Source: an uncultured Haloferula sp. (lineage in GTDB: Bacteria > Verrucomicrobiota > Verrucomicrobiia > Verrucomicrobiales > Akkermansiaceae). From it: DNA of 64,000 nucleotides. The notes beneath the pieces were generated by a model, which did no database searches, was not told the DNA's origin, and worked only from the letters and a program-made list of their open reading frames with translations. The translations under genes and the position numbers were made by a program. Position 1 is the stretch's first letter, and every line of letters begins with the position of its first letter. This document shows, piece after piece, positions 7,870 through 31,648 of the stretch. Location: NCBI GenBank assembly GCA_965652295.1, contig CBFGTS010000001.1:160001-224000 (forward strand), written 5' to 3'.

Positions 7870-8388
7870 ATGCAATCCCGTGCCTTCCTCCTGGCCGGCC
7901 TTGCCTCGGCATGTATCGGAACGGGCTCCGCGCAGCTTTTGTTCGAAGATACCTTCGAGCGGCCGAACTCCAGCGACATCAATGCCGCGACCACCGGCAT
8001 CACGAACCACACCGGAACGACCTTCACCGCTGGAGCGTGGAGGGAAAACTACGAGGCGGATGCCAACGTCAACCGCACCAACATCGGTGGCCTGAACGGC
8101 GATGCCGGCAACAACGACAACCCCGGGATCTTGTTTCTCGCCGACGGAGTGGGGACCTCGAACGTTTATGTGAACCACAATTTCACGAACGCTTCGATCC
8201 TGGCAGCCGGTGGGTTCGCAGTGGAAACGAGCTACCGAGCGGCACCCGTTTCGGCGCCGCCGATGGCGCAGGCTCACTCCTGCTTCAAGATGTCCCTCCA
8301 CGGCCCGGCTATGCGGCGAAAGCCTTCTATCGCGCGACCTCCTTCCACTGGCCGGCTCCCTGAGCCAGCCGACCGCCCTGAGATTTGA
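7870..8388 (+). pseudogene. Probable remnant of a secreted multidomain protein gene (internal deletion)
   Basis: Signal peptide plus the first half of the domain that is repeated in the next gene (FEDTF.R...TSN.Y.NHNFTNA.ILAAGGF). Similarity ends near 8225. A C-terminus-like peptide (...KAFYRATSFHWPAP*) lies in another frame, ending at 8363. Confidence 0.6.
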
Positions 8389-8441
8389 TCAACCCAAGAT
8401 GCACGCCGGGGCTGCCGATGGCAGCCCTGGCCTCACTTTCC

Positions 8442-11400
8442 ATGAAGCTGCTCGCCTCCGCCGTTCTGGCGCTATCCACGTTTTCCCAAGCCCAGACGGT
8501 TCTATTTGAAGACACCTTCGATCGCGCTGATTCACGAAACATCGATCTCTCCCTGCTGGGCGTCACCGATGCCACCGGCTCGGCGCTGCCCGTCGACGGT
8601 GTCTATAGCCATGGATTCATCGATCCGGCGAATGAAACCAGCGGTCCCGACGGCATCGCGACCAACGGTGGTGGGGCAGGGATTTCAGGAAACCGATTGA
8701 ACCTGGCGGACGGCTCCGGGACCTCGAACGCCTACATCAACCACAACTTCACCAACGCCGAGATCCTCGCGGCGGGTGGCTTCGAAGTGAGCGTGGCGGT
8801 CACGGGCGTTTCGCAGACCTCCAGCGAACAGGGCGGTGGGTTCGCGATCGGCATGACCGCCGCGCAGGCGGCCGACACCGGAGATGCTTACAGCGGGCAG
8901 GGGAGCAGCGACGGTCTCCGGAAAATGACCGATGGCCTCGGGAACTTGGCATCGGGTGGAGCGGTCTCCGATTTCTGGGTGGTGCTGCGCGCGGATGCGA
9001 CCGTGGCGTGGGGCGGGGCGGGGAACCAGGCTCCCTTTGGCACGGCAAGCGTGGCCGCGAAAACGGGGACGATCTCCGCCCGTTTCGAGCTGACCAGCTT
9101 CGCCGCGGGTTCCGAGGTGATCTACTTCGTCTTCTACGATGGCGGGCAGATCGGGTCCGGAAGCTTCATGTGGGACGATGGCGGCGCGAACCACATCGGA
9201 CTCGATGCGCGGGACTCTTCGGCGGTTTCGTTCGATGATCTCAGGATCTCTATCTTGGGCGGGACTCCTCCGGTGGCGTCCCTATCTTCCTCGGTGCTGG
9301 TCGTTCCAAAGGACCATCCCGCCACCCCGGTGACGCTGAGCTGGAGCGGCGAAAACCTGCCGCCGGGGACGACCTATGAAATCGAGGCCACTCCCCCCGC
9401 GGTGTTTCCGAACGGTGGCCAGGCCGGTTCCGCCGACGGAGGTTCAGGTACGGTGGACGCCGTAGTCGATGGCACGCAGGGTGACACGGAATTCACCCTG
9501 CGGTTCCTGAATGGCACCGGGGAGATTGCGAGTGCGACGGTCGTCGTCCGCCGCCACCGGACGAATGTCGTGCTGATCCTGATGGACGACATGGGCTTCT
9601 CCGATTTCGGCTGCTACGGGTCCGAGATCCGCACGCCGGCGATCGATTCGCTGGCCGAGCACGGCATCCGCTACCGGAATTTCTACAACACCGCGCGCTG
9701 CTCCACCACCCGCTGTGCGCTGCTTTCCGGGCTCTACACCCACCAGGTGGGCGATCCTCCGGGTGCCTCACTTCCTCCTTATCGGGAGGACAACAATGTC
9801 TCGATCGCCGAGCTGCTTTCGACCACCGGATACCGCCGCTACATGACCGGAAAATGGCACTCGGGCACCGGTGACGCCCGCTCGCCGATCGGCCGGGGGT
9901 TCCAGCATATCTTCGGGCAAACCAGTGGCGGGAATTTCCCCCACAACCAGGTCAGCGGCGGCAACCAGAACTCGTTCTGGAACACCGCGAACTTCGGCTT
10001 TTACTCGGAAAACAACGAGATCCCGTCGATCGACTGGAGCGGCACGCAGTTCCATCAAACCACGGGCATCGGCGAGTACGCGGTGGACTTCATCGATCAT
10101 CACCTCGCCAAAAACGACGGTGCGCCCTTCTTCCTCTACATCCCCTTCAACGCGCAGCACTGGCCGGTGAACGCGCCCGCGGCGATGGCGGATCGCTACA
10201 CGAATGCCGGCGATCCGACGCCCGAGGGGATCACCGCGAACGGTGGCGAGGACGGCGGCGATTACTATCAGTATGAAGCCGGTTGGGACCAGGTGCGGGC
10301 CGAGCGTTTGGCGAAGCAGAAGGCGACCGGGGTCCTGCCATCGCTGACGGCTCTCTCGCCCCGGAGCCCGGCGATCAACTCGGACGGCACGGACAACCCG
10401 GACCCAAGCATCATCGTGGACATCCCTGCGTGGGACACCCTCGGCGCGTCGCGTCAGACCGATCTCGCGCGACGCATGGCGGTCTACGCGGCGATGCTGG
10501 AAATGGTCGACGACAACATCAGGAAAGTGGTCGATCACCTGGAGGCGAACAACCTGCTGGACGATACGATCATTTTCATCCTCGCCGACAATGGTGGGAA
10601 CTATGAGGGCGGCCTCTACGGTCGCACCCACGGCACGATCAATGCCGCGCCGGTGACCGGCACCGCGAATCTCGCCGCGATGGGCCAGCCCGGCACGCCC
10701 GATCTTAGGCTCGGCGGTGGCTGGGCGAACGTGAACAACACGCCGTTCCGCCTCTTCAAGCACTACCAGCATGAGGGTGGAATCCGCACGCCCTGCATCA
10801 TCCACTGGCCTGCCGGCATCACGTCGCCCGGCCGCTGGATCGATGACCGCGGTCATCTGATCGACATCATGGCGACCATTTCCGAAGTCACCGATACGCC
10901 ATGGCCGGGAACCTGGCCGGGCCGCACCTTGTTGCCGTGGGAGGGCGAGTCGCTGGTGCCGCATTTCAAACCGGAGACCGTCGACGATTTCCCGGAGCGG
11001 TCGATCGGCTTCGAGCACGAGAGCAACCGCGCGTGGTTCAAGGGGAATTACAAGTTCGTGACGAAGCACTTCTCCTACCCCGATGGATCTTCACCTCAGA
11101 ACGAGCTGGAGCTGTATGACCTCAGCGTCGATCCCACCGAATTGAACAACCTGGCGGCGAGCAAGCCCGTGGTGCTCGCCGGGATGGTCGAGGAGTGGAA
11201 CGAGTGGGCGATCCATGTGGGAGTTCCGTCCAACCGGCTGCTGCTTCCGCCCGTGCCACAGGTGGATCCCGCGCCGTTGGCTGCGGATCTTTTCGTCGAT
11301 ACGTTCAACCGGGACAACGCGCTGGATCACGACGCTGCGGGTGGCGGCATGACGGGCTCGCTGGTGCCGCCGCTGGGTGCCACGACAGCCTACTACGATT

Positions 11401-12389
11401 CCTGGGAAGAAGGTTCGACGGAGGTCGCATCGAACAACCTGATCATGGCGGGCGGCACCGGCATGTCGGAAATGGCGGTGCAGCACAACTTCGTCGATCC
11501 CGCCATTCTCGCAGCGGGGGGCTTCTCGGTGCAGGTGAGGATCGATGAGATCAACTCCGCCGGCGGTGACGAGGCGAACCGCTTCGCTGGCATCGCACTG
11601 GGCCTCAACGCCGCGGAGGCACAGAACTCGAATGATATCGGCATCTCGGGTTCATTCCGCGGTACACCGGGAACGGTCGCTGGCACCGCCGATGCCTTCG
11701 TGGAACTCGATCAGAACGGCAACGTGAAGTGCTGGGTGGGCGGCGTGGTGGTGGAAACCGTCCCGGTCGGTGCCATTCGCGGAACCTTGCTAGTTTCCTG
11801 CGAAACCGGCTCGTTCGAGGCGGGGAGCACGGCGACCTTGAATGTTTTTTTCGAAGGCGAGCCGGTGCTTTCCCGCAGCTTCACGTGGAGCCAGGCGAAC
11901 GAGAATCACATCGGCCTGAGCGCCCGGGCGAGCGGCTATGTGAAACTCGACAATCTGGCGGTCCGCACGTTGCCCCTGAGCGTTTCCCTCGCCTCGGAAT
12001 ACGCGCTTTCGGCCGGGCTTGCCGGAGCGGTGTCGGCACCGGATGCGGACCCCGACGGCGATGGCGATGACAATTTCCTCGAATGGCTGAAGGCTGGAAA
12101 CCCCGACGGATCGGACACCGGCACCAAGCTGCTCTCGGTGACTCCCTCGCCCGATGGCTCATTCCGCTTCAGCTACGCCCACGTCAACGATGCCGATGCC
12201 GCAGGCCTCACCTACACCTTCCGCTACTCCGCGGACCTGAGTGGCGACATCTCAAGCTGGCCCGAGTTCACGCCCGAGCCGGTTTCGTCCCAAGCGCTGG
12301 GTGATCGCCACGAGTTGCGCCTGGCCTCGCTGCCGGCGGTGCTCGCGGGTTCAAATCCGCGTTTGTTCATCGTGGTCGAGGTGGACTGA
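8442..12389 (+). CDS. Secreted multidomain sulfatase (S1/arylsulfatase family)
   Basis: Signal peptide; NVVLILMDDMG, RCSTTRCALLSG, GKWH, QHWP, ADNG, FKH..HEGGIRTP, ELYDL. Two flanking copies of a non-catalytic domain and a DPDGDG motif near the C-terminus. Confidence 0.9.
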   Translation: MKLLASAVLALSTFSQAQTVLFEDTFDRADSRNIDLSLLGVTDATGSALPVDGVYSHGFIDPANETSGPDGIATNGGGAGISGNRLNLADGSGTSNAYINHNFTNAEILAAGGFEVSVAVTGVSQTSSEQGGGFAIGMTAAQAADTGDAYSGQGSSDGLRKMTDGLGNLASGGAVSDFWVVLRADATVAWGGAGNQAPFGTASVAAKTGTISARFELTSFAAGSEVIYFVFYDGGQIGSGSFMWDDGGANHIGLDARDSSAVSFDDLRISILGGTPPVASLSSSVLVVPKDHPATPVTLSWSGENLPPGTTYEIEATPPAVFPNGGQAGSADGGSGTVDAVVDGTQGDTEFTLRFLNGTGEIASATVVVRRHRTNVVLILMDDMGFSDFGCYGSEIRTPAIDSLAEHGIRYRNFYNTARCSTTRCALLSGLYTHQVGDPPGASLPPYREDNNVSIAELLSTTGYRRYMTGKWHSGTGDARSPIGRGFQHIFGQTSGGNFPHNQVSGGNQNSFWNTANFGFYSENNEIPSIDWSGTQFHQTTGIGEYAVDFIDHHLAKNDGAPFFLYIPFNAQHWPVNAPAAMADRYTNAGDPTPEGITANGGEDGGDYYQYEAGWDQVRAERLAKQKATGVLPSLTALSPRSPAINSDGTDNPDPSIIVDIPAWDTLGASRQTDLARRMAVYAAMLEMVDDNIRKVVDHLEANNLLDDTIIFILADNGGNYEGGLYGRTHGTINAAPVTGTANLAAMGQPGTPDLRLGGGWANVNNTPFRLFKHYQHEGGIRTPCIIHWPAGITSPGRWIDDRGHLIDIMATISEVTDTPWPGTWPGRTLLPWEGESLVPHFKPETVDDFPERSIGFEHESNRAWFKGNYKFVTKHFSYPDGSSPQNELELYDLSVDPTELNNLAASKPVVLAGMVEEWNEWAIHVGVPSNRLLLPPVPQVDPAPLAADLFVDTFNRDNALDHDAAGGGMTGSLVPPLGATTAYYDSWEEGSTEVASNNLIMAGGTGMSEMAVQHNFVDPAILAAGGFSVQVRIDEINSAGGDEANRFAGIALGLNAAEAQNSNDIGISGSFRGTPGTVAGTADAFVELDQNGNVKCWVGGVVVETVPVGAIRGTLLVSCETGSFEAGSTATLNVFFEGEPVLSRSFTWSQANENHIGLSARASGYVKLDNLAVRTLPLSVSLASEYALSAGLAGAVSAPDADPDGDGDDNFLEWLKAGNPDGSDTGTKLLSVTPSPDGSFRFSYAHVNDADAAGLTYTFRYSADLSGDISSWPEFTPEPVSSQALGDRHELRLASLPAVLAGSNPRLFIVVEVD

Positions 12390-12631: not shown

Positions 12632-12810
12632 TCATCGCGGTATGCCCCGGGTTGAAATTTTCCCTAAGGTCACCTGAGAACTGAGCAGCGATGCTCGACC
12701 GGGAAACCGGTCAAGGCACAGCGGTTCGGTTCGGGACAACAAAACAAAGGGAATAGAGGGGTGGCCTAATGACTTCCGGGGGGATGTCGATGGGTCACCC
12801 CCTTTGTTTT
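12632..12810 (+). ncRNA. Candidate structured RNA (6S-like sRNA or riboswitch-like leader) with 3' terminator hairpin
   Basis: Two adjacent GNRA hairpins (12683-12696, 12697-12712) closed by nested helices; A-rich bubble; terminal hairpin with U-tract. No credible ORF. Confidence 0.5.
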
Positions 12811-12845
12811 CAGGGATTTCCGGTGTTTTCCCACCAAAACTTCCC

Positions 12846-12874
12846 TTGCCTCCCAGGCCCTCCGGCGCTATCCC
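12846..12874 (+). promoter_or_regulatory. Putative housekeeping promoter of hisG
   Basis: TTGCCT-N17-TATCCC, 11 nt before the ATG. The same pattern occurs at nuoA and the arg leader. Confidence 0.5.
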
Positions 12875-12885
12875 CGCCGCCCGCG

Positions 12886-13773
12886 ATGTCCGAGACCGCA
12901 GAGAAATCCCTCAAGCTCGCCCTGCCGAAGGGCAGCTTGCAGCAACCGACCCTCGATCTTTTCGAGAAGGCCGGCTACAACATCTATGTCTCGTCCCGCG
13001 GCTACCGGCCTTCCTCGGACGACAACGATCTCGACCTGTTCCTGATCCGTGCGCAGGAAATCGGACGCTACATCGGCCAGGGATTCATCGACTGCGGGAT
13101 CACCGGGCTCGATTGGGCATCGGAAGCCGGCAGCGAGCTGGTGGACCTCGCCGAGCTGCCGTATTCGCGCGCCACCGTCCGCCCGACGCGTTGGGTGCTC
13201 GTGGTGCCCGAGGATTCTCCGATCCGGACGCCCCAAGACCTCGAAGGAAAACGCATCGCCACTGAAGGCGTGGGCATCACCCAGCGCTACCTCGCGGAAA
13301 AAGGCATCAAGGCCGAAGTGGAATTTTCCTGGGGCGCGACCGAGGTGAAGGTCCCCGATTTGGTCGACGCCATCGTCGATGTCACCGAGACGGGGTCTTC
13401 GATCAAAGCCAACAAGCTGCGCATCGTCGATACGCTGCTGACCTCCTTCCCTCACTTCTACGCCAGTCCCGCAGCTGCGGCGGATGCCTGGAAGCGCGAG
13501 AAGATGGACCGCATCTGCATGATGCTCAAGGCGGCTCTCGACGCCCGCGACAAGGTGGGCCTCAAAATGAACCTGCCCGCCGACCGGCTCGAAGCGATGC
13601 TCCAGCGCCTGCCTTCGCTGCGGCGTCCGACCGTCTCGCAGCTCGCCGAGGACAACTGGGTGGCGGTCGAGGTCGTCATCGAGGAAAAAGTCGTCCGCCA
13701 CATCATTCCCGAGCTGAAGCAACTCGGTGCCGAAGGCATCATCGAGTATCCGCTCAACAAGCTCGTTCCCTGA
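12886..13773 (+). CDS. hisG: ATP phosphoribosyltransferase (long form)
   Basis: LKLALPKGSL, IRAQEI, DCGITGLDW, GATE, DAIVDVTETGSS, C-terminal regulatory domain (PTVSQL...GAEGII). Confidence 0.96.
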   Translation: MSETAEKSLKLALPKGSLQQPTLDLFEKAGYNIYVSSRGYRPSSDDNDLDLFLIRAQEIGRYIGQGFIDCGITGLDWASEAGSELVDLAELPYSRATVRPTRWVLVVPEDSPIRTPQDLEGKRIATEGVGITQRYLAEKGIKAEVEFSWGATEVKVPDLVDAIVDVTETGSSIKANKLRIVDTLLTSFPHFYASPAAAADAWKREKMDRICMMLKAALDARDKVGLKMNLPADRLEAMLQRLPSLRRPTVSQLAEDNWVAVEVVIEEKVVRHIIPELKQLGAEGIIEYPLNKLVP

Positions 13774-13961: not shown

Positions 13962-14000
13962 ACCAGACAGGGGTCCGGGAAACCGGGTCCCTCGTTTGGT
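13962..14000 (+). terminator. Hairpin/terminator after the small basic protein gene
   Basis: GGGGTCCGG-GAAA-CCGGGTCCC stem, extendable by ACCAGAC/GTTTGGT. Confidence 0.5.
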
Positions 14001-14131: not shown

Positions 14132-16246
14132 GTGGGGTTTCCCGAGGGTTTTCTTTTCGGCACGGCGAACGCGGACCACCAGGTCGAGGCGCACGATCCT
14201 GAACGTGAGGACGTCTGGGATCTGTGGGAACGCAGCCAGGAATTGACGCCGCGGGGTCGGGGTACGGATTTCGAAAACCGGTACGAGGAAGACATCGCGG
14301 CGGCGGCTGCGATGGGCTGCCGTTTATTCCGTTTCTCGATCGCCTGGGCCAGGGTCGAACCGGAGTGCGGGCACTTCGATGCCGCGGCGCTGGATCATTA
14401 CCGACGGGTGGCGGAGTGCGTGAAACGCCACGGGATGGAGGTGATGGTGACCCTCCACCATTTCGTGTGGCCCCTTTGGCTGGAGCGGGATCACGGCGGT
14501 ATGATCGGCGACGCGTTCCCCGATCTGTTCTCCCGCTACGCCGACCGGGTGGCGGAGGCTCTTGACGGGGTGATTGACTGGTGGATCACCTTCAACGAGC
14601 CCAGCCAGCTGACTTTTGGCTACATCAAGCCGTGGTGGCAGAGCCGCTACTACATGCCGCCGGGGTTGCCCCGTGGGTCATCCGTCGACTCCGAAGCCGA
14701 GGCGGTGGGGAAGCTGGTGCCGAACCTGTTCCGGGCGCACGCGCGTGCCCGGCAGGCGGTCCGGCGGCGCATGCCCGGGGCGCGGGTCGGGGTGAACCCG
14801 CTGGTCACCGGCTTTCCCGGTTGGTTGCAGAGTCTCATGGACTGGGGGGCGTGTCATCGCGGTTTATCCGAGGCGCTGTTCAAGTTCACCACCCGCAGCG
14901 CCCTGGTTTCAGAGCGTTCGCAGGTGGACATCGTGATCGGTGGCATCAGCGGAGCGGATCAAACCCGTTACGAGATCAGTCATCCCTATCTCCACACCGG
15001 CAAGGCGGTGCTGGTGCGTGGGGATTTTCCCGGCTCTGGAAAGGATGGTTTGGTGGGACGGAAGGTGGGCGTCGTGGGCGTGGGAAATCAGGAGATTTCC
15101 TGGCGGCGCGATCTGCCGGAGGGTGCCCGGCGCGTCGTCCTCACCAACTACCATGAAGCGCGGCAGTGTCTCCGCGACGAGGCGGTGGACGCGATCTATG
15201 GCGATGCCTTCTATCTTCTTCCCGAGGGCTTGGAGGACGCCGGCGACTTCCGTTGGCTGTTGACCGGGCTGACCGACGAGCATTATGTCGTGGCCGCGGC
15301 CCACGGCCATGGGCGGCTCATGGCGGTGGTGAACAAGGTGGTAGCGGAGCTGCGTGGAGCTGAGGGCGTGTGGCCGGATCATCCGGGTGTGCCGGCGACC
15401 TCCCTGCATGAGGTTTTCCGAGGTGGCGACAGTCTGCCCGATCAGATGTCGAGCGCCCGTGGCGTGCGGCGGGTGAAGCGCCGGGGCCGCCTGCGGGTGG
15501 GGTTCCGCACCGATGCAGCGGGGCTTTCCTGCGATTGTCAGCAAGGCGGCACGGAGATGGAGCTGGCGCGCCGTATCGCCGAGGCCTTGCTGGGGGACCG
15601 GGAAGCGGTCGAGTTCGTCCCGCTCGAACCGGCGAAGCGCCTGGAGGTTCTCGAATCGAAGACGACCTGGTTGAACTGGGCGTGGCGGTTCTGGGGAACC
15701 ACCAGCCTCATCGCCAATGCCAACTGGTGGTATCTCGGCATGTTGGGAAGACTGCCGCGGGAGCTATGCCCCGAAGAGGCGGTCGGAGCTCAGGATTTTG
15801 TGGGGCTCGACTATTACTGGGGCCTCCCGACGTGGAAGCTGCACCGCTTCCGTTTGTTGGAGGAGGCGGCTCATGGCCGGTTCCTCAAGGCTCCGGTGTG
15901 GCCCCGGGGCCTGCGGAATGCTCTGAGACGGTTTTCCAAATGGTTTCCGGACCACGAGCTTCTCATCGTCGAGAACGGCTGTCCGCCCGAGGCCGGGGGG
16001 ATGAAACGCGGCGACTACATGGATGCCCACCTCCGGGAGGTGAAGGCGGCGCTGGCCGAGGGGATTCCGGTCCGGGCCTACAATTGGTGGTCGGTCACCT
16101 CCAACCGCGAGTGGGGGCACGCCTTCGACCCGAACACCGACTTCGGTCTCTACTTCGTCGATCTCGACAAGGACCCGGGGCTGACGCGGATCGCCACGCC
16201 GGAGACATTGCGCTATCACCAATGGATCACCGGCGGGCGCGTCTAG
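14132..16246 (+). CDS. Glycoside hydrolase family 1 with inserted solute-binding-protein (family 3) domain
   Basis: FPEGFLFGTA..HQVE, FRFSIAWAR, TLHHF, TFNEP (acid/base), DFVGLDYY, IVENG (nucleophile), WS.TSNREWG. An insert of about 250 aa lies between NEP and ENG. Confidence 0.88.
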   Translation: MGFPEGFLFGTANADHQVEAHDPEREDVWDLWERSQELTPRGRGTDFENRYEEDIAAAAAMGCRLFRFSIAWARVEPECGHFDAAALDHYRRVAECVKRHGMEVMVTLHHFVWPLWLERDHGGMIGDAFPDLFSRYADRVAEALDGVIDWWITFNEPSQLTFGYIKPWWQSRYYMPPGLPRGSSVDSEAEAVGKLVPNLFRAHARARQAVRRRMPGARVGVNPLVTGFPGWLQSLMDWGACHRGLSEALFKFTTRSALVSERSQVDIVIGGISGADQTRYEISHPYLHTGKAVLVRGDFPGSGKDGLVGRKVGVVGVGNQEISWRRDLPEGARRVVLTNYHEARQCLRDEAVDAIYGDAFYLLPEGLEDAGDFRWLLTGLTDEHYVVAAAHGHGRLMAVVNKVVAELRGAEGVWPDHPGVPATSLHEVFRGGDSLPDQMSSARGVRRVKRRGRLRVGFRTDAAGLSCDCQQGGTEMELARRIAEALLGDREAVEFVPLEPAKRLEVLESKTTWLNWAWRFWGTTSLIANANWWYLGMLGRLPRELCPEEAVGAQDFVGLDYYWGLPTWKLHRFRLLEEAAHGRFLKAPVWPRGLRNALRRFSKWFPDHELLIVENGCPPEAGGMKRGDYMDAHLREVKAALAEGIPVRAYNWWSVTSNREWGHAFDPNTDFGLYFVDLDKDPGLTRIATPETLRYHQWITGGRV

Positions 16247-23543: not shown

Positions 23544-24443
23544 TCAACGGCGCGTCACCCGCAGGCGGAAAAAATCGCGTCCCGATTCCGGAGCGGGAAA
23601 CACCACGCTCAGGATCTCCAGGCCGGCGTCCGCCGGGTGCGGACCCACCGAAACGCTCTGGATGGCGCCATCGAAAGTCGCCCAACCCGAGAGATCGGTG
23701 GAACGCTGGATTTCGTAGTGGAAGGCCGCACTCGAAAACTGCGAGCCGGTGCCGGAAGACCCGACGCGGCGGACGAGGTTCAAGGTGCCGGGGTGGAGGT
23801 CCAGCGGCAGCGGATCGGACGTGCCGGGATCGCTGCCCGTGGCGAATTCGATCAACGCGCTCCGACCATCGCCATCCGCGTCGGAATCATCCGGATTCGC
23901 CAGTGCCACGGCCTGATGCAGCTCGCCGCCGAGCGTGGCCGAGTTGACGCCGGGCTCACGCACGGAAACCAGCACCGCGCCGGGGCTCATGAGTGCGGCC
24001 GAGGTGGTCTGGCAGGAGATCGAACCGAATGCCGGCACGGTCCAGGTCGGAGCGGAAAAAACGAGCTGACCGGTGGCTTGGGCAAAATCCGGAGCGTCCA
24101 GAATCCACAGGTAGATGCGCTTGCCGGATTGGCTTGAGGCGTCGACCGAAGCCGCTCCGGAAAAGGAGCCGGCAAAACCCTGTGCCACGCCATTGAAGGT
24201 GCCGACCGCAGTCGTGGCATAGCTCACGAAATGCGCTTGGAGGGTGAAGTGGTCGTTTCCCGCCGCGATCACCTCCGCCGGGGTCAGATCGAAGGTGCCA
24301 ACCATCACCCGGCAGCCGACCGGGAGGTCGAGACCCTGGATGCTGCCCACCCCTCCGCCGGCACCTTGGGCACCATAGCTCACGGAAACCCCGTCGGCGC
24401 AGGCGCAGGCCGCCACCAGGAAGAAAGCGAGGGCGCGGATCAT
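23544..24443 (-). CDS. Secreted hypothetical protein
   Basis: Signal peptide; DSDADGDG...EFATGSDP; YEIQRSTDL..W; terminal RDFFRLRV. 4-nt overlap with the upstream giant gene. Confidence 0.8.
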   Translation of the reverse strand: MIRALAFFLVAACACADGVSVSYGAQGAGGGVGSIQGLDLPVGCRVMVGTFDLTPAEVIAAGNDHFTLQAHFVSYATTAVGTFNGVAQGFAGSFSGAASVDASSQSGKRIYLWILDAPDFAQATGQLVFSAPTWTVPAFGSISCQTTSAALMSPGAVLVSVREPGVNSATLGGELHQAVALANPDDSDADGDGRSALIEFATGSDPGTSDPLPLDLHPGTLNLVRRVGSSGTGSQFSSAAFHYEIQRSTDLSGWATFDGAIQSVSVGPHPADAGLEILSVVFPAPESGRDFFRLRVTRR

Positions 24444-27400
24444 TCCTCGTAGATGAACGGTTGCGGGCGTTCCCAGAGGCCGTCCTCCGTGAAACGGAAG
24501 AGCAACCAGGCAGATGCCGGATCGATCGGACGGATGGAAGCGTCGGTCAAATCATCCCCGATCGCGCGCCAGCCACTGCCGCCGGGATTCGTCGCGTCCT
24601 TTTGATAGTAGGGCTGATAACCCCACGGGCTTTCGAGATAGACGTGGCTGTGGTTGTTGGCGTCCGGGCTCACGAGGAAGAACGGGTTCAGCCCGAGAGT
24701 GCCGAGGGTGGCGTGCTCCACCGGTGTCTGGCTGCCGAGGATGCGGATGCCTTGGTCCATCACGCGCAGCCGCTTGCCGAGCACCACCTCGCCGTGGAAC
24801 CAGAGATCGAGCGGCTGATCCTCCGGATGGCGGAAGGTGAAGCCCTCGCCCGGTTGGACGATGCTGTCGGCCATGTCCTCGAAGGGGTCGGCGGTGGAAC
24901 GCCAGCCCGCCCCTCCCAAACCACCACTACGATAGTAGTAGTCGCTGAACGAGCCGTCCGGGTTCACGAAGGAAATCAGATCGCCCCCGTCCGGCGTGCC
25001 GGGGACGAGTCCGTCCTCATTGAAGCGTCCGAAGAGCGAAGCCAGCGAATGGCTACGGCGGATGACGTAGGTGCCTCCCCCGCCGGATGCCAGCCGGGCG
25101 GCGAGCAGCTCGTTCGCCCGACCCAGCTCCAAGGTGCTGCTGGCGTTTCCGGTGATGGCCATGAGCGCGCCCTCGGCGGGGCCGGAGGTGATCTGCACTT
25201 CGTGATCGAGCCACTGGCCCGGCGTCCAGGACGTCCGGGTGTCGGTGAGGGTGAAGCCGTCGGCCGTGGTGAAGCGGCCGCCATCCAGCGCCCCGCGGGC
25301 AAAGGGAGGAGCGAAGAGGTTCTGCTCCCGTGTCACCGGTCGCTTCAGCCAGCCGAAGGGGGCCGAGCGCACGGTGCCGCCGCCCACATCCACCGCGAGG
25401 CGGAGGTAGGCGGAATCGAAGGCATAGAGGCTCGATCGCACCTCCTCGGTGCCATCGGCGAGGTCGGAGACGTCGATGCTGAGGACGTTCGCTGGAATAT
25501 CGCTGCCTCCGGGACCATTGAGATCGGCGAGGGTGCCCCAGCCGCTTTCGAGATCGAGCGTGCCTTCCAGCCAGTAGCTGACGCCGGCGCGAGTGGCGGA
25601 GGGACGCGTGAAGACAAGCTCGAAGCGCCGCGAGCCATCGGGCAGGATCACCGCCTCCAGATGCGGGGTGCGGAGGACGCCGGCAAGAGCGCCGGGGACG
25701 GTGGAAACGGTGGCATCGCCACGGGTCGGATCGGTTGCCAGGGCGAACTCGATGCCATCGTTCAGCATGTCACCATCGTGATCATCCGCCGGATCGCCGC
25801 TCAGGCCGTAGCGGCCGGCCCATTCCTGCCAAGTGCCCGCGACGGGCGGCTGGCTGACCTCGACGATGACGTTGGCACTGGTCGTGCCGGCCGCGTTGGT
25901 GGCGGTGAGGGTGTAGGTGGTGGTCGAGTTCGGAGCTACGGTGATCGTGGTGGAGCCGCGGACGTCGGTGCCGTTCATGCTCAGGGTGGTGAGCGGCGAG
26001 CCTCCGGAAACGACCGTCCACGAGAGGGTGACTTCCGTTCCCGCGGTCACGGCATCGGGGGAGGCGTTGAAGACGATGATGTCCGGGGCACCGGGCGCGG
26101 GTGCGGCGGCATCGGCGTCCTCGATCTGCAGGAGGTAGGCGGCGAGGTCGTCGAGTTCCTGCGAGGTGAGGTCCACTCCGTCGTGGGCGGAAATGGCGGC
26201 GGCGACGGTCGTTGCGGAGCCATCGTGAAGGAAGGGAGCTCCATCGTGCAGGCCGCGCAGCGTGGGCGTGTCGAGACCGGTGAGAGTGCCGCCGAGGCGG
26301 GATCCACTGGAAGGCTTGAGCGTGCCGATGTCATGCAGCGGGGCTTTCCCCGAGTCGGTGAAATTCACGCCGCTGTGGCAGGAGGCGCAGTTCTCGGCGA
26401 TGAAGATGTTTTTCCCTCGCAACGCGGCGAGCGTATTCGCGCCGTCCTGCTGGCGGTGCGGCGTTTCGGCGAAGCCGGACAGCGAGGTGACGTAGGCGGC
26501 GAGTGCGTCGAGATCGGCGCTGCGGCCGGCGTTCGGAGTGCCAAGCGGCGGGTGCGGCGTCCCGTTGATCATCCCGTTGCCATCGGCCAGGTCGCGGACC
26601 TGGTTGTCGAAATCCTGGACTTCGTCGAAATTGGCGGACCAGTGGAGCGGGCCGTGGCCGGTGCCGGCGCGGCCGCGCAGGTCGGTGGTATTCCGAAGAC
26701 CTTCGCCGAAACCGGTGAAGTCCCAAACGCGACCATCGTGGCCGCCTTCGTTGTGGCAGGCGGCGCAGGAAATGTAGTCCTGCGAGCCCATGCGGTCGTC
26801 GGCTGCATCGTAGAAGAGCTGCTTGCCGAGCAGCACGTCGGGGGCAAGGGCGTCGGTTTCCACCGGGCTCAGTGTGGCGAGCAGTGTGGCTTGGGGGACG
26901 CCGTGGTTGATGATGTCGGACACGGCGTGAAGCGTCACCGTGCGGCTCATGAAGTTGTGGGTGAAAAGCACGCTGCCATCCCGCGAAAGCGCGAGGCCCT
27001 GAGGGGCGCGGCCGACCGGGATGCGGAGGAGTTCTTGTCCGCCGTAGACATCGATCACCGAAACCTGGCGCGAGCCTTCGAGGGCGACGAAGAGGAACAG
27101 GCCGAAAGGATCGAAGATGGCGGTGGACGGCACGGATCCGTCGTCGTGGTCGATGCGGCGCTCCGGCAGTTCCGCGCCAGCGGCGAGGTCGATGACCGAG
27201 GTGATGGCGCGAACGGTGGTGTCGTGGGTGAGGTTTCGGCCATCGCGCAGCACGCCGCGCTGGATGTTGTCCTGCTTCGAAGGCACCCACGCGAAGTCGC
27301 CCGCGGGTGAGATGACGGCGGGCCCGAGGTAGTTCGGAAGGCCCCGGCCACCGCCGCCGGAGTCCGGCTTCTGCGAGGGGGCGAGCAGGATGGTGTCGAG

Positions 27401-30400
27401 GGCCGACATGGCCGCGGTATCGACCTTCACGACTTCGCCGCCGCCTTGGTCGGGCGAGGGCTCACCCGTAACCTCACCGGGGACGAGCGGCGTGATGAAG
27501 CGCGAGACGTAGGCGGTGATGCCATCGGCCGTGATCGAGACATGCCGGGGGTGCGGGCCGACTTCGGCGAGGGCGAGGATTTCGCCGCTGGCGGGATCGA
27601 GCTTCGCGAGCTGGCCGGTGGCTTGCAGTGCGACATAGGCGGCCGAGCCATCGGGAGCGAAGGCGAGCCCGAAGGGCGCGGATCCGCGAGGTAGGACGAT
27701 GTTACGGGAAATATCGTAGGTGGCGGGATCGATGACCGCGATGGTGGCGTCACCCGCGTTGGCGACCCACAGCGAACCGTCCGGCGCGAAGGCGAGGGAG
27801 TGGGGTTTTTCACCGGTCGGGATCTCGGCGATGAGGGCACCGGTGGTGGTGTCGAGAGCGCTGACGGAGCCGTTGTCCGGGTTCACGTTCCAGACGCTGG
27901 CTGGTGCCGTGACGATGGCCTGCGAGACGGTGGGTGCGGGGCCGGAACTTACGAGCCGGATGTTCTGGTAGAACGTGGTGACGGTTTCCGTGCCGCTGGC
28001 ATCAATGGCGGTCAGCGTGACGAGAAAACGCCCGGGGCGGCTGAAGACGTGGCGGTTGAAGGGCTCGGTGGTGGTTTCCTCCGGTGATTCGTCGCCGAAG
28101 TTCCAGAGGTAGAGGACGTTGGTTCCGCCCGTGGCATCGATGTTGAAATCCGTCTCGCTGCCCACCCAGTTCACCCCGGTGATGGGCGGCTGGATGGCGA
28201 GCGCCGGATGAATCGTCCAAAGGAAACTGGTGGAGGCTGACTCACCGGAGGGATCGGTGGCGGTGAGCGTGACGCTCATGGTTACCGGAGCGGTGGGAAC
28301 GCCGAGGATTTCCCCGGTGCTCGGATTCAGCGTGAGTCCGGAGGGCAGGCCGCTGGTGGAAAATGAAAGTGGATCGCCGTCGGGATCGCTCGCCTGCGGT
28401 TTGAGGGTGACGCCGGTGCCGACGGTGTGCGCGCGGTCGGCGATGCTGGCGAGGGTGGGCGGGCGGTTCGGTTCGAAGGGCGAGAGGTAGGAGCCTTCGA
28501 CGATCACCTTGGCGGGATCTCCCGGGCGCTGCCAGGCGAGGTTGATGTGGTCGTTGCCGCTGTCTTCCTTGTGAAGAATTTCAAGGTAGTAACGGCGTCC
28601 TCCGACGAGCGTCACGGGAGCGGACTGCTGGCTTGGCGATTTGTCCCACTGGCTCAGGGTCGAGCCGCCTTCGATGCTGGCGATGGCAATGGCTTGCTCG
28701 GGCGATTCGTCGCTGCTGAGCAGGAGTCGCGCGGAGTCGTCGGCGGAAATCCAGAAGACGTAGGCACCGCTCACGGGAGTATGGATGTATCCTCGGACGC
28801 GGGTTCCGTAGCTGTTGCCCGAGTTGACGCCTGCGGGAAAGCCGACGATGGCATCCTGAGCGGTGGGCGTATCCGGGAAGCGTGGGTCGGAGGTCAACAG
28901 GTCGATCGTATTGCCCGGGAGGCTGGTCCACGTTTCGCGCAGCAGCAATCCCTCGCCTTGCCCCGGGAGCCGGATGGTCCACACGAAGCCCACGGTGTCG
29001 GAGGCGGCACCATCGACGTGGACGGACAGCGTGACCGGGAACACGCCTTCGGCGGTGGGACTGCCGGTGATGCGGCCGGTGGAGGCGTTGATCTGCAAAC
29101 CGGGAGGAAGCCCGGTGGCGGTGAAGGTGACGCCGGCGGCATCGAACGCCGAGGTGGGCGGCGTGAAGGAAACGGATTGGCCGGTGATGTCGACGCGATC
29201 GCTGATTTCGGCGAAGGAGGGAAAGCCCACGGTGAAGCGGAGGAATACCTCGTTGTCGGCATTGCGGTTGGCGGACCAGATCCAGCGGGCGTCGGAGCCG
29301 GTGGGAAAGCCTTTCACGACGTCGCCCCACGGCGCGGATCCATAGGGGCCGTATTCGGTGGCGGCGGCCCACGCGGAGTCGTCGAAGCCGGGCAGCTGCC
29401 AGCCTTCGGGTGCCGAGGTCGCGACCTTCCAGCCGGAGTCGGTGAGGACCGTTTTGCCATCGATGGCGAACTGGCCGATCACCCCACCGACGTCGCCGGA
29501 ATCCATCGCGCGGATGGCGAGGGTGGCGCGGCCATCGGTGCTGAAGGCGGCACGCAGGGCTTTCGTCCAGTCGGTGCCGATGGCGACGAGTTCGCCGTTG
29601 ACGTAGAGTTCGTGGCGGTTGTCGGCGGCGATGACGGATTCGTTCTCCGGTTGGATGGCGCGGAGGCAGCGGGAGGGGACGATCGCTTTCGGGGTCCTCG
29701 GGGACGACCACTTCAGTTGCACGACGGCTTCGTTGATGGCTTGGAAATATTCCAAGCGGATGGGAACGGGCACGCCGGCGATGAGTTGGGCGGTGCCCGA
29801 AAACTCGGTTGCGGCGTGGCCGCTCCATTCATCGATGGCCTTCGTGCCGTCGATCCAGAGCCTCACGCCATCGTCGCTGTTCACGTGGAATTGGTAGGTT
29901 TCGGTGAATTCGGGAATCACCCATCCGGTCCAGGTCGTTTTCCAAGTGTTGGGACCTAGCAGATCTGGGAACGGGCTTTCCGTGCCGTAGTCGAAGTCCA
30001 CCACGGGGTCGACGCGGGATACTTCGCCGTCCGTTTCCGAGTCGGAATAAACTCCGAGGAGCCCGCTGGCGGGGGCGTCGATGGTTTCGCGGACGTGGAT
30101 GATGGAGGCCTTCGAGTAGGAGCCATTGGCATCGAGGCCGAAGAGCATCCAGTAGCCGGGCACCATCACGTTGGCATTGGGATGGGCGACGAGACGGTAG
30201 TCACCGGGAGTTTTCTCCGAGAACGGGATGTTCAGAAAACGCTGGTCGGTGGAGAGGCCGTGGGTGGTGGCCATCATGCGGATCATCGCAAACCGATGAA
30301 GCCCGGGCGTGGCATTGACGCCGAAAACCGATCCGAGCGTGACACTGTCCGGCGCGGACGAAAGGACCGGCCGAGTGGCGGGCTGGCCGTTCGATGAATA

Positions 30401-31648
30401 CAAGGACGGCGGCGTGTAGAGCTGCGCGTCGGTGTGGGTGAAGGAGGCATTGGGGTCCCCCGGGGTGTAGCCACCTCCGCCGGAGAACACGCGGCCGTCC
30501 GGCAGAAGCAGGGCGGTGGAGTGGTAGTTCCGCGGAACCGAGATGTCGGCAACGGTGCGCCAGGTGCCGGTTTGCGGATTCCAGATCTCGGAGGCGAGGA
30601 TGGTGCCTTGGTCGCTGAACTTGATGCCTGAGGTGTTGCCGCCGACGACGAGAACTTCTCCCGTGGGAAGCACGATCGCGTTGTGAAAACGCCGTGGGAA
30701 CTGCATCGGCGAGGTGAGGGCGACGGTCGGAGGGGTGGTGTTGAGGTCGATGGTGTAACTGGTGGTCGAGGAAGTTTTCGCGTTGGTGAACGACGAAGCA
30801 CCGCCGGCGACGAGGAATTTACCGGACTCGTACATCACCACGCCGGCGTGCTTCGGGTAGTAGTCGCCGGGGACCTGGAGGCCGGCGGAAACGCGGGTGC
30901 CGTTGCCGTCCGGGGACACCCAGTGCATTTCCTTGGTGGGGCCGAAGTGGAACAGGCGGCCATCGGGCGCGACGAACACGTAGGGCCACCAATTCGACTC
31001 AAAGCCGGTGGCACCTGCGACGGGTTGCCAGTTGATGCCGCCGAGCCGCTGCCAGATGTCGGTTTCGGGCGAATACCGCTCCGCCGTGTTGGGGCCGCCG
31101 TTGCCGGAGACGGTGAAGACGTCGCCGTCCGGCAGCGCGACGCTGGTGGTGTACCAGCGGGGATCGAACATGTTTTTGACCCGCTGCCAGCGATTCTTCC
31201 GCCAATCGTAGGCCGACGAATCGCGGACGGTGTAGCGCCCACCCATCGTCTGGAGGGTGCCGTCGGTGCGCATCACGAGGTGGGCGCAGAACATCTCGTG
31301 ATCGAGATAGAGGTCGTTGGAAAACGTGCCGGTGGCCGGGTCCCACACCGCCCACTGGGTTTGGGTTTTCGTGCCCGGCCAGTGCTTCACCTCCTGCCCG
31401 GAAAACGTAAGGATCTTGCCGTTCGGCAGGGAGGCAGCGGAGACCGGCGTGTGCGGCCACGTGACGATCGCACTCCAGCTGCCGGCCTGGTTTGAGGGGC
31501 CCGGAGGTGCGGGCGTGCCGTCGAACCCGGGAAGCAGCGCGGCGGCATCGGCCCAAAAGGCGTCGTCCTCGGCGTGTTGGTTCGGATCGGCGAGCAACGG
31601 CAAAGCGAGTGCCGCTGCCAAAAGAGGCAGAAGGGATCGGGGGGACAT
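24440..31648 (-). CDS. Giant secreted protein: AA5/galactose-oxidase-like copper radical oxidase + PA14 x2 + Ig/PKD + YVTN beta-propeller + di-heme cytochrome c domain + TIGR02597-like C-terminus
   Basis: HEMFC, PRWY, RNYHS, TTH..STDQR; SDDG/SADD PA14 motifs; LPPGL.I...TG.I.G.P Ig repeats; CAACH and CASCH heme motifs. Confidence 0.88.
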   Translation of the reverse strand: MSPRSLLPLLAAALALPLLADPNQHAEDDAFWADAAALLPGFDGTPAPPGPSNQAGSWSAIVTWPHTPVSAASLPNGKILTFSGQEVKHWPGTKTQTQWAVWDPATGTFSNDLYLDHEMFCAHLVMRTDGTLQTMGGRYTVRDSSAYDWRKNRWQRVKNMFDPRWYTTSVALPDGDVFTVSGNGGPNTAERYSPETDIWQRLGGINWQPVAGATGFESNWWPYVFVAPDGRLFHFGPTKEMHWVSPDGNGTRVSAGLQVPGDYYPKHAGVVMYESGKFLVAGGASSFTNAKTSSTTSYTIDLNTTPPTVALTSPMQFPRRFHNAIVLPTGEVLVVGGNTSGIKFSDQGTILASEIWNPQTGTWRTVADISVPRNYHSTALLLPDGRVFSGGGGYTPGDPNASFTHTDAQLYTPPSLYSSNGQPATRPVLSSAPDSVTLGSVFGVNATPGLHRFAMIRMMATTHGLSTDQRFLNIPFSEKTPGDYRLVAHPNANVMVPGYWMLFGLDANGSYSKASIIHVRETIDAPASGLLGVYSDSETDGEVSRVDPVVDFDYGTESPFPDLLGPNTWKTTWTGWVIPEFTETYQFHVNSDDGVRLWIDGTKAIDEWSGHAATEFSGTAQLIAGVPVPIRLEYFQAINEAVVQLKWSSPRTPKAIVPSRCLRAIQPENESVIAADNRHELYVNGELVAIGTDWTKALRAAFSTDGRATLAIRAMDSGDVGGVIGQFAIDGKTVLTDSGWKVATSAPEGWQLPGFDDSAWAAATEYGPYGSAPWGDVVKGFPTGSDARWIWSANRNADNEVFLRFTVGFPSFAEISDRVDITGQSVSFTPPTSAFDAAGVTFTATGLPPGLQINASTGRITGSPTAEGVFPVTLSVHVDGAASDTVGFVWTIRLPGQGEGLLLRETWTSLPGNTIDLLTSDPRFPDTPTAQDAIVGFPAGVNSGNSYGTRVRGYIHTPVSGAYVFWISADDSARLLLSSDESPEQAIAIASIEGGSTLSQWDKSPSQQSAPVTLVGGRRYYLEILHKEDSGNDHINLAWQRPGDPAKVIVEGSYLSPFEPNRPPTLASIADRAHTVGTGVTLKPQASDPDGDPLSFSTSGLPSGLTLNPSTGEILGVPTAPVTMSVTLTATDPSGESASTSFLWTIHPALAIQPPITGVNWVGSETDFNIDATGGTNVLYLWNFGDESPEETTTEPFNRHVFSRPGRFLVTLTAIDASGTETVTTFYQNIRLVSSGPAPTVSQAIVTAPASVWNVNPDNGSVSALDTTTGALIAEIPTGEKPHSLAFAPDGSLWVANAGDATIAVIDPATYDISRNIVLPRGSAPFGLAFAPDGSAAYVALQATGQLAKLDPASGEILALAEVGPHPRHVSITADGITAYVSRFITPLVPGEVTGEPSPDQGGGEVVKVDTAAMSALDTILLAPSQKPDSGGGGRGLPNYLGPAVISPAGDFAWVPSKQDNIQRGVLRDGRNLTHDTTVRAITSVIDLAAGAELPERRIDHDDGSVPSTAIFDPFGLFLFVALEGSRQVSVIDVYGGQELLRIPVGRAPQGLALSRDGSVLFTHNFMSRTVTLHAVSDIINHGVPQATLLATLSPVETDALAPDVLLGKQLFYDAADDRMGSQDYISCAACHNEGGHDGRVWDFTGFGEGLRNTTDLRGRAGTGHGPLHWSANFDEVQDFDNQVRDLADGNGMINGTPHPPLGTPNAGRSADLDALAAYVTSLSGFAETPHRQQDGANTLAALRGKNIFIAENCASCHSGVNFTDSGKAPLHDIGTLKPSSGSRLGGTLTGLDTPTLRGLHDGAPFLHDGSATTVAAAISAHDGVDLTSQELDDLAAYLLQIEDADAAAPAPGAPDIIVFNASPDAVTAGTEVTLSWTVVSGGSPLTTLSMNGTDVRGSTTITVAPNSTTTYTLTATNAAGTTSANVIVEVSQPPVAGTWQEWAGRYGLSGDPADDHDGDMLNDGIEFALATDPTRGDATVSTVPGALAGVLRTPHLEAVILPDGSRRFELVFTRPSATRAGVSYWLEGTLDLESGWGTLADLNGPGGSDIPANVLSIDVSDLADGTEEVRSSLYAFDSAYLRLAVDVGGGTVRSAPFGWLKRPVTREQNLFAPPFARGALDGGRFTTADGFTLTDTRTSWTPGQWLDHEVQITSGPAEGALMAITGNASSTLELGRANELLAARLASGGGGTYVIRRSHSLASLFGRFNEDGLVPGTPDGGDLISFVNPDGSFSDYYYRSGGLGGAGWRSTADPFEDMADSIVQPGEGFTFRHPEDQPLDLWFHGEVVLGKRLRVMDQGIRILGSQTPVEHATLGTLGLNPFFLVSPDANNHSHVYLESPWGYQPYYQKDATNPGGSGWRAIGDDLTDASIRPIDPASAWLLFRFTEDGLWERPQPFIYEE

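Follow-up and report, generated by a model that had tools for sequence, protein, structure and literature searches.

A family 1 glycosidase of an uncultured Haloferula with a circularly permuted solute-binding domain inserted in its barrel

Introduction

What is a solute-binding domain, cut and rejoined in swapped order, doing in the middle of a glycosidase? The question is raised by a gene in a stretch of 64,000 nucleotides from an uncultured Haloferula sp. of the Akkermansiaceae (Verrucomicrobiota; assembly GCA_965652295.1, contig CBFGTS010000001.1, positions 160,001 to 224,000), the whole of which is referred to here as the window. The open reading frame (ORF) at 14132-16246 of the window, on the forward strand, starts with GTG and encodes a 704-residue product of glycoside hydrolase family 1 (GH1). 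A preliminary description, made from the DNA alone, had proposed that this protein combines a natural circular permutation with a domain insertion, the inserted part deriving from a family-3 solute-binding protein (SBP), and that ligand binding might be coupled to glycoside hydrolysis. Sequence comparison and fold prediction both support the permutation and the insertion. Ligand gating of hydrolysis is plausible, and the evidence on either side of it is set out below.

A GH1 enzyme with an intact catalytic apparatus

Judged by its sequence, the product is a GH1 beta-glycosidase whose catalytic residues are all intact. The Pfam family Glyco_hydro_1 (PF00232) matches it with an E-value (E) of 1.1e-50 and 172.9 bits, against a cut-off of 22.6, in an alignment split over two stretches: the first pairs residues 3-224 with profile positions 5-221 and the second is C-terminal. 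When the whole protein is compared with the sequences of solved structures the matches are GH1 throughout, the best being 4r27 (E 7.2e-45), of which chain residues 7-162 align with 3-158 of the query (2.7e-38) and 269-391 with 551-678. The acid/base motif TFNEP occupies residues 153-157 (14588-14602), the catalytic residue being E156, and the nucleophile motif ENG residues 614-616 (15971-15979), with E614, as part of IVENG at 612-616. Both glutamates are therefore present where the preliminary description had read them.

Across 71 full-length members of the family the catalytic and glycone-binding residues are kept in 67-71 sequences. Y562 and E614 occur in all 71, Q17, H110, N155 and E156 in 70 each, W653 in 70 and E660 in 68. 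For Q17, H110, Y562, W653 and E660/W661 we presume the roles that these positions have in the GH1 literature. The conserved glycone residues would fit an unphosphorylated sugar of beta-gluco- or galacto-type as substrate. The NCBIfam equivalog model for GH1 beta-glucosidases (TIGR03356, BGL) gives 164.1 bits, below its curated cut-off of 478.5, which leaves the protein outside the ordinary beta-glucosidase equivalogs.

The product opens directly with the first GH1 strand, FPEGFLFG, and, since the open frame around the gene amounts to only 705 codons in all, no N-terminal signal peptide can be added upstream. The absence of a signal peptide, already remarked on in the preliminary description, thus holds, and the enzyme is predicted to be cytoplasmic.

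The insert is a circularly permuted solute-binding domain

In the alignment columns of residues 245-512 the window protein has 267 residues where eight ordinary GH1 proteins have none or one, a measured value close to the 250 or so extra residues first estimated between the catalytic glutamates. The insertion site is at the barrel's catalytic face, after strand beta5 (RVGVN, 218-222) and before strand beta6 (FVGLDY, 556-561).

The nature of the insert emerges most clearly from a profile, A2, which was built from the inserts of 20 family members and run against solved structures, where it matches 95 distinct sequences at E<=1. With AncQR (4zv1) the match has E 6.2e-24, profile positions 7-158 aligning with chain residues 67-221 at 6.9e-22. 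Three further chains are matched in two pieces. In 1xt8, profile positions 197-265 align with chain residues 34-105 (7.6e-11) and 8-157 with 105-255 (3.3e-4); in 2yjp, 187-262 align with 35-113 (3.9e-7) and 7-158 with 115-267 (2.9e-7); in 5eyf, 225-262 align with 37-74 and 7-156 with 76-226. The insert sequence on its own yields the same two-piece pattern with solved amino-acid-binding proteins, more weakly than the profile does. Among NCBIfam models, PRK11260 (cystine-binding) aligns residues 257-408 with its positions 95-247 of 266 (E 2.9e-7), and TIGR01096 matches with E 3.8e-4, both far below the curated cut-offs.

An SBP of canonical order begins with beta1-alpha1-beta2-alpha2. Here the order is swapped, with the junction at residue 113/115 of 2yjp, where helix alpha2 of the binding protein is followed by strand beta3, so that the domain runs from strand beta3 through lobe 2 and the C-terminal helix into a 33-residue linker and then through beta1-alpha1-beta2-alpha2. 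Since the two pieces cover a single SBP chain once, abutting each other in reversed order, the insert is, on this sequence evidence, one complete, circularly permuted family-3 solute-binding (Venus-flytrap) domain. The first reading of its segments as the C-terminal three quarters and the N-terminal quarter of such a protein is borne out by the A2 matches to 2yjp, 1xt8 and 5eyf, as are the swapped order, the pieces being complementary on single chains, and the rejoining linker of about 33 residues, which corresponds to residues 411-443.

Predicted structures

Structure prediction had been expected to show a closed two-lobed binding protein seated on the GH1 barrel. A GH1 barrel and an SBP-type insert are indeed predicted, in models of moderate confidence overall; the orientation of the two domains is not reliable. 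The full-length AlphaFold2 model, from an alignment of 31 sequences, has a mean predicted local distance difference test score (pLDDT) of 74.3 and a predicted template modelling score (pTM) of 0.68, with pLDDT below 50 in the connectors at 244-257, 410-435 (more precisely 410-424 and 427-435 within the linker) and 520-528. Foldseek searches with this model find only GH1 proteins, headed by 8znv (5.6e-18, template modelling (TM) score by target 0.65) and 4r27 (8.2e-18); the TM scores by target of 0.62-0.70 agree with a (beta/alpha)8 barrel.

Modelled alone, the insert reaches a pLDDT of 77.1 and a pTM of 0.77, with values of 84-95 in the block of the second piece, and the elements of this model are, in turn, beta3, lobe 2, return strand, C-terminal helix, linker, beta1, alpha1, beta2. 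Foldseek relates it to the arginine-binding protein ArgBP (6q3u, 3.9e-10), to the second Venus-flytrap domain (VFT2) of BvgS (7.3e-10), to the periplasmic-binding-protein (PBP) domain of RmcA and to many amino-acid-binding proteins over about 157 columns. VIA-align gives Z-scores of 11-13 over about 155-165 residues, pairing model residues 1-160 with the C-terminal part of the chains (for 5l9o, Z 13.1, root-mean-square deviation 3.4, 155 residues aligned). Profile, Foldseek and VIA-align all indicate homology to family-3 SBPs and a bilobed type II fold. Both structural aligners are sequential and cover the first piece only; because such methods cannot show the second piece, its packing against the first rests on model confidence.

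Could the two pieces be unrelated remnants of tandem SBP copies that do not fold together? Circular permutation usually arises via tandem duplication and, given that route, two SBP copies probably existed once; moreover, the linker that joins the pieces is the least conserved part of the protein, with 43% pairwise identity, and has low pLDDT in both models. Yet the pieces cover one chain without overlap or gap in 2yjp, 1xt8 and 5eyf alike, the insert alone is predicted as one unit (pTM 0.77), its second piece included, and the identical junction is kept across phyla. The tandem-remnant explanation is already largely ruled out by these observations and we consider it very improbable. Table 1 gathers the segments of the protein and their positions.

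Table 1. Segments of the GH1-SBP protein and the adjoining hairpin (window positions)
Feature	Residues	Positions	Strand	Basis and remarks
GH1 barrel, N-terminal part, beta1-beta5	1-245	14132..14866	+	PF00232, 4r27; has Q17, H110 and TFNEP
First connector, barrel to insert	246-264	14867..14923	+	pLDDT <50 at 244-257; 76% pairwise identity within the window's clade
SBP first piece	265-410	14924..15361	+	A2, PRK11260, Foldseek, VIA-align; C-terminal three quarters: beta3, hinge, whole of lobe 2, return strand, C-terminal helix
Lobe 2	288-383	14993..15280	+	Missing in natural short forms; holds clade-specific G318-N319-Q320 and Y356-G357-D358
Linker, old SBP C-terminus to old N-terminus	411-443	15362..15460	+	43% identity, low pLDDT; length differs among relatives
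SBP second piece	444-510	15461..15661	+	A2 against 1xt8 and 2yjp; pLDDT 84-95; N-terminal quarter (beta1, alpha1, beta2, alpha2), completing lobe 1
Return to barrel	511-545	15662..15766	+	WLNWAWRFWG, NWWxLG...LPxxLCP (helix alpha5); highest conservation in the clade, 84% pairwise identity
GH1 barrel, C-terminal part	546-704 + stop	15767..16246	+	4r27 match, family counts; holds beta6 (DYYWG, Y562), ENG (E614), W653, E660 and W661
Terminator-like hairpin between hisG and the GH1 gene		13969..13992	+	Consensus scan: 10-pair stem, T-rich tail

The segment returning to the barrel is of particular interest. W532, G536, G539, L541 and P547 are invariant in 25 distant members of the family, those devoid of the SBP domain included. 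Just ahead of them, the Trp-rich stretch WLNWAWRFWG (residues 511-523, 15662-15700) is invariant in the Akkermansiaceae clade and variable in other phyla; it sits exactly where the chain re-enters the barrel from the inserted domain.

A family spread over several phyla

Homologues with the same architecture, for which the preliminary description had suggested a search, are found in several phyla with both domains present. A word-indexed protein search produced 538 matches among the candidates scored. The best 120 of these 538 are 701-763 residues long, with 63-100% identity and 97-100% query coverage, and the names among the 120 matches listed are Haloferula, Luteolibacter and Akkermansiaceae. 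Several Joint Genome Institute (JGI) names among the matches listed join "beta-glucosidase" with "ABC-type amino acid transport", and 12 of the 120 close relatives listed have a precomputed match to the Pfam family SBP_bac_3. An exhaustive search of representative sequences added further full-length relatives of 680-792 residues at 34-42% identity. SBP_bac_3 is significant in 15 of 16 distant full-length relatives, with E-values down to 2.8e-21, and one distant full-length relative is named from a Thermoflexales bacterium. Among the matches of the same search are very long proteins (P0167, P0181, P0190, P0196, P0213 and P0220; 985-4269 residues) with 4-7 separate GH1-like stretches each, seemingly giants built of several GH1 units.

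A scan of species genomes extends the range. Full-length matches come from Luteolibacter, Haloferula and Chthoniobacterales; from the Cyanobacteria Calothrix, Iphinoe, Nostocaceae, Amazonocrinis, Cyanosarcina and Prochloraceae; from Baltobacteraceae, Cybelea and Tumulicola of the Eremiobacterota/Vulcanimicrobiota; and also from Chloroflexota, Eisenbacteria and Acidiferrales. A match in Blastocatellaceae ends at a contig end, and one in Dormibacterota spans only about 440 codons and is probably a reduced form. In the ESM Atlas, both Pfam families occur together in 39%, 84% and 98% of the sequences of three clusters with 176, 93 and 51 members, respectively. The architecture is that of a multi-phylum family and not a one-off, a point that qualifies the functional reading of the preliminary description.

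Within the window's own taxonomic family, 60 of 251 sampled genomes have a match, a few of the 60 being ordinary GH1. The matches cluster in four genera (26 of 32 genomes in g1, 17 of 33 in g151, eight of nine in g160 and five of six in g153), and none was found in the 33 genomes of the small-genome genus g2. A 677-codon frame in one genome (G064) was considered as a family member and rejected, being an ordinary GH1 with an N-terminal extension. In a phylum-wide genome sample the only full-length match lay in the window's own genome; 22 of the 23 genomes of the window's family in that sample belong to one small-genome genus and known distant members were missed, so that it is no evidence of absence.

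Reduced forms and evolutionary history

The family comes in three architectures: full length, without lobe 2, and without the whole SBP domain. Residues corresponding to about 288-383, exactly lobe 2, are missing from two loci of the window's genus (L032, L033), from four of genus g153 (L035-L038) and, elsewhere, from P0137. The whole domain is missing from another locus of the window's genus (L034) and from P0140, P0141, P0145, P0149, P0150 and P0151. The alpha5 motif and the GH1 residues are present in every one of these reduced forms.

A quick IQ-TREE run on the GH1 core (45 rows, without the columns of the insert) places the subfamily in a single clade, apart from ordinary GH1, with 100% support in the Shimodaira-Hasegawa-like approximate likelihood ratio test (SH-aLRT). 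Full forms are spread throughout this clade, and the lobe-2-less and SBP-less forms are nested among them, which means that the losses were repeated. A tree uniting all 13 reduced forms, a group named after the tree had been seen, is rejected with a difference in log-likelihood (delta lnL) of 393 and an approximately unbiased test p-value (p-AU) of 1.9e-36. Since the insertion site and the permutation junction are identical in all full forms, one old insertion followed by repeated losses is the simplest history. The multi-phylum family is thus shown to have one old origin, with repeated losses thereafter.

The pocket and a possible role in gating

Is the inserted domain equipped to bind a ligand? 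The pocket was surveyed in the 71 full-length members, 50 of them outside the window's clade and 21 within it. Outside the clade an S/T-x-T-x-x-R loop is kept, its Arg in 49 and its Thr in 47 of the 50 sequences, together with the hinge Asp in 47. By analogy with HisJ, GlnBP and similar proteins, we take the loop Thr and Arg and the hinge Asp to be the residues that bind an amino acid by its alpha-carboxylate and alpha-ammonium groups. Because these anchors are kept, the ligand in most lineages would be an alpha-amino acid.

We favour, with slightly less than even confidence, the reading that the permuted flytrap domain acts as a ligand-sensing allosteric module that modulates the GH1 active site. 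Lobe 1 would be fixed to the barrel via the two connectors, while lobe 2 would close over a small ligand bound in the cleft between the lobes. Closure could then be passed via the connectors and the invariant alpha5 helix (NWWxLG) to the catalytic face, where the transmitted movement would alter catalysis or the access of substrate. The alpha-amino acid proposed for most lineages would probably give way to a different ligand in the Akkermansiaceae clade, following remodelling of the pocket. The fuller proposal, of an ancient, multi-phylum natural switch in which a cytosolic amino acid, or another metabolite in Akkermansiaceae, gates glycoside hydrolysis, is more tentative and we would place it well short of even.

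Two points speak for gating. One is that the amino-acid anchors are kept in distant relatives; the other is selection on the domain. Identity within the window's clade is 56-59% in the SBP parts, compared with 74-79% in GH1 and 43% in the linker, and pairwise ratios of nonsynonymous to synonymous substitution rates (dN/dS) are 0.15-0.19 for the SBP, 0.15-0.26 for lobe 2 and 0.05-0.11 for GH1, values that are rough because dS is saturated (about 1-2). The inserted domain is under purifying selection and is not decaying.

The same conserved anchors could serve another purpose. The domain might be a substrate-recognition lid that binds the aglycone, which could be the free amino-acid terminus of a glycosylated amino acid or of a similar conjugate, so that SBP and GH1 form one composite active site with the glycosidic bond presented to GH1. 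The position of the insertion at the catalytic face, between beta5 and alpha5, would suit such a role, as would the retention, in 47-49 of 50 distant members, of the canonical residues for anchoring free alpha-amino and alpha-carboxylate groups; equally, the top VIA-align row is SocA, which binds sugar-amino-acid conjugates (Z 13.1, rows within 1 Z being tied). The topology of the tether, however, is unfavourable: the domain starts at beta3 and ends at alpha2, both at the end of lobe 1 far from the cleft, and SBP topology suggests that the pocket probably lies at least about 20 Angstrom from the tether. Members of the family that lack lobe 2, or the SBP domain altogether, keep every GH1 residue, and in the loci examined no transporter or pathway genes suited to such a substrate are conserved nearby. 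Given this distance between tether and cleft, a substrate lid is less likely than allosteric control, and we regard it as unlikely.

Several observations weigh against ligand gating. A two-residue deletion removes the pocket Thr in all 21 members of the window's clade, and the Arg column holds Asp in 16 of them and Arg in only one; the window protein itself has D276 in this column, lacks the Thr and retains D358. SBP_bac_3 (PF00497) has no match in the whole window protein at E<=1 or in the insert alone at E<=10, so that of the split Pfam matches anticipated in the preliminary description those to Glyco_hydro_1 were found and those to SBP_bac_3 were not. The full-length model gives no reliable domain orientation or interface through which a signal might be predicted to pass, and the saturation of dS, mentioned above, leaves the selection estimates rough. 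The neighbouring genes are no guide either: clustering of neighbours in nine loci and again in 39 loci revealed no conserved operon and, with neighbours that differ from locus to locus, no ligand is suggested by a pathway. Well-supported branches of the tree force at least three changes for each reduced type, and six of the 32 genomes of the same genus (G081, G342, G413, G459, G499, G504) have no match at E<=1e-20. Since lobe 2 or the domain has been lost repeatedly and the gene is patchy, any regulation by the domain is dispensable; the GH1 enzyme does not need its inserted domain. As a separate observation, these six genomes are 90-99% complete, and the gene is not universal among close kin.

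Might the domain in the window's clade then bind no ligand and have a structural role, in stability, in oligomer contacts or in shaping the rim of the active site? The loss of the canonical Arg and Thr there would be expected, the SBP parts are less conserved than GH1 (the identities given above), and three separate lineages have lost lobe 2 but retained lobe 1, consistent with a packing role for the latter. But lobe 2 is still under purifying selection where it is present, by the dN/dS values above, and positions aligned with the cleft are among the most conserved of the domain, which would be unexpected for a spacer. The S/T-T-A turn of lobe 2 has become G-N-Q in 19 of the 21 sequences, D358 is found in all 21 and Y-G-D in 20-21, and there are clade-specific R459 (20 of 21) and D461 (21 of 21). 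A purely structural domain therefore seems to us improbable, and the pocket of the window's clade, as far as its aligned residues tell, is remodelled yet tightly conserved. Because the Arg column is Asp and lobe 2 carries G-N-Q, a standard amino acid is unlikely to be bound by the window protein, and under allosteric control the ligand in its clade is probably not a standard amino acid.

Genomic neighbourhood

Upstream of the GH1 gene lie genes for a 1334-residue sulfatase and hisG, and downstream nuoA and ruvA. When these and the remaining window neighbours (an unnamed ORF and a 485-residue ORF) were compared by tblastn with the loci of 29 relatives, taken with 1.5-kb flanks, the outcome was one weak sulfatase match. 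No transporter genes adjoin the gene in the nine and 39 loci, and neither an export signal nor partnership with an ABC transporter, as would befit an ordinary SBP, is seen.

The sulfatase gene (8385-12389, forward strand) encodes a central sulfatase domain with long flanks and ends 1.7 kb upstream of the GH1 gene. A sulfatase stands beside the gene in three further loci of nine, two of them from close kin; these are plain sulfatases of 516-531 residues (L047:10146-11723, L049:10209-11759, L051:5606-7201). The adjacency could be chance in the sulfatase-rich Verrucomicrobiota. Elsewhere, a GMC oxidoreductase adjoins the gene in six loci (L077, L078, L082, L091, L094, L100), one from Vulcanimicrobiota and the others cyanobacterial, and a GH31 gene in three cyanobacterial loci (L078, L082, L114), which hints at a sugar-processing context in Cyanobacteria only.

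The hairpin preceding the GH1 gene suggests that the gene is its own transcription unit, although four terminator-like sites were found in the region against 2.5 expected, which makes this evidence weak. The hisG gene (12769-13773, forward strand) encodes the long form, HisG plus HisG_C; the ORF as listed extends some 40 codons upstream of the point where the conserved domain starts, and the true start is probably a later ATG (MSETAEK...). The longest ORF in the window, of 2402 residues, lies at 24440-31648 on the reverse strand. A search of the whole window with Rfam gave no matches.

Relation to known systems

With ordinary GH1 enzymes such as BGL167 (4r27) and Cba3 (8znv) the window protein shares the (beta/alpha)8 fold, the NEP and ENG motifs and the glycone-binding residues. 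It departs from them in its 267 extra residues, in the subfamily motifs NWWxLG..LPxxLCP and TSNREWG and in belonging to a separate clade. The inserted domain is homologous to family-3 SBPs (AncQR 4zv1, 5eyf, 1xt8, 2yjp, ArgBP 6q3u) and is likewise predicted to be of the bilobed type II, most family members keeping the Thr, Arg and Asp of the pocket. In contrast to those proteins it is permuted at alpha2/beta3, contains the 33-residue linker, is not exported, has no transporter and is nested in an enzyme, and in the window's clade its pocket is remodelled. Use of SBP_bac_3-type domains as sensors and not for transport is known from BvgS VFT2 (3mpk) and the RmcA PBP domain (7ejg), both among the best fold matches of the insert; those two, however, are unpermuted domains that lie outside the cytoplasm and are fused end to end to kinases or cyclic di-GMP enzymes.

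The lytic transglycosylase MltF also has an SBP_bac_3-like N-terminal domain. The binding of muropeptides to the regulatory N-terminal domain is reported to open the active site (PMC10746161). MltF, so described, resembles the present family as a glycan-cleaving enzyme under the allosteric control of an attached ligand-binding domain, coupling in GH1-SBP proteins being putative. It is unlike them in being an end-to-end fusion, periplasmic, neither permuted nor inserted, and of another catalytic fold.

Natural permutation of a binding protein has a precedent in TpMglB-2 (Tp0684), which is reported still to bind its ligand in the cleft (PMC4990184). That protein belongs to the type I/cluster B class of sugar-binding proteins and is a free-standing lipoprotein, unlike the window domain, which is nested in an enzyme. 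The closest topological parallels are engineered: a xylose-stimulated chimera of a xylanase and a xylose-binding protein (XBP), and related switches (PMC4896006, PMC6335823). They too are reported to join a periplasmic-binding-protein fold and a glycoside hydrolase by domain insertion, with ligand modulating activity. They are laboratory constructs, however, usually with the enzyme inserted in the binding protein, whereas in the window a permuted binding protein lies in the enzyme and coupling is putative.

Full-text searches, with subscription journals outside their scope, led to the engineered chimeras, to MltF and to the permuted MglB, and to no description of a GH1 enzyme that naturally carries a binding domain as an insert. 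Two candidates for a prior description were set aside: in PMC12632509 both Pfam names occur only in unrelated table rows, and PMC13114784, which concerns domain insertions, mentions neither GH1 nor binding proteins. The two-domain make-up is already present in automatic database names. What appears to be new is the recognition of the permutation, of the nesting, of the multi-phylum age and of the natural deletion series.

Significance

In protein engineering, enzymes are placed under ligand control by combining them with binding proteins through domain insertion, often together with permutation. If the allosteric reading is true, a natural family of the same topology would show how evolution solved the coupling problem, and would be the natural counterpart of the engineered switches, its lobe-2-less and domain-less forms acting as built-in constitutive controls. 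Old, widespread and selected, the family offers comparison sets of full, lobe-2-less and domain-less forms. Should the domain prove structural, lobe 2, cleanly excised time and again, would still make a useful example of domain evolution. As a GH1 subfamily the proteins would be a so far uncharacterised one, with members in Verrucomicrobiota, Cyanobacteria, Eremiobacterota and other groups, which could link nitrogen or metabolite status to the breakdown of glycosides.

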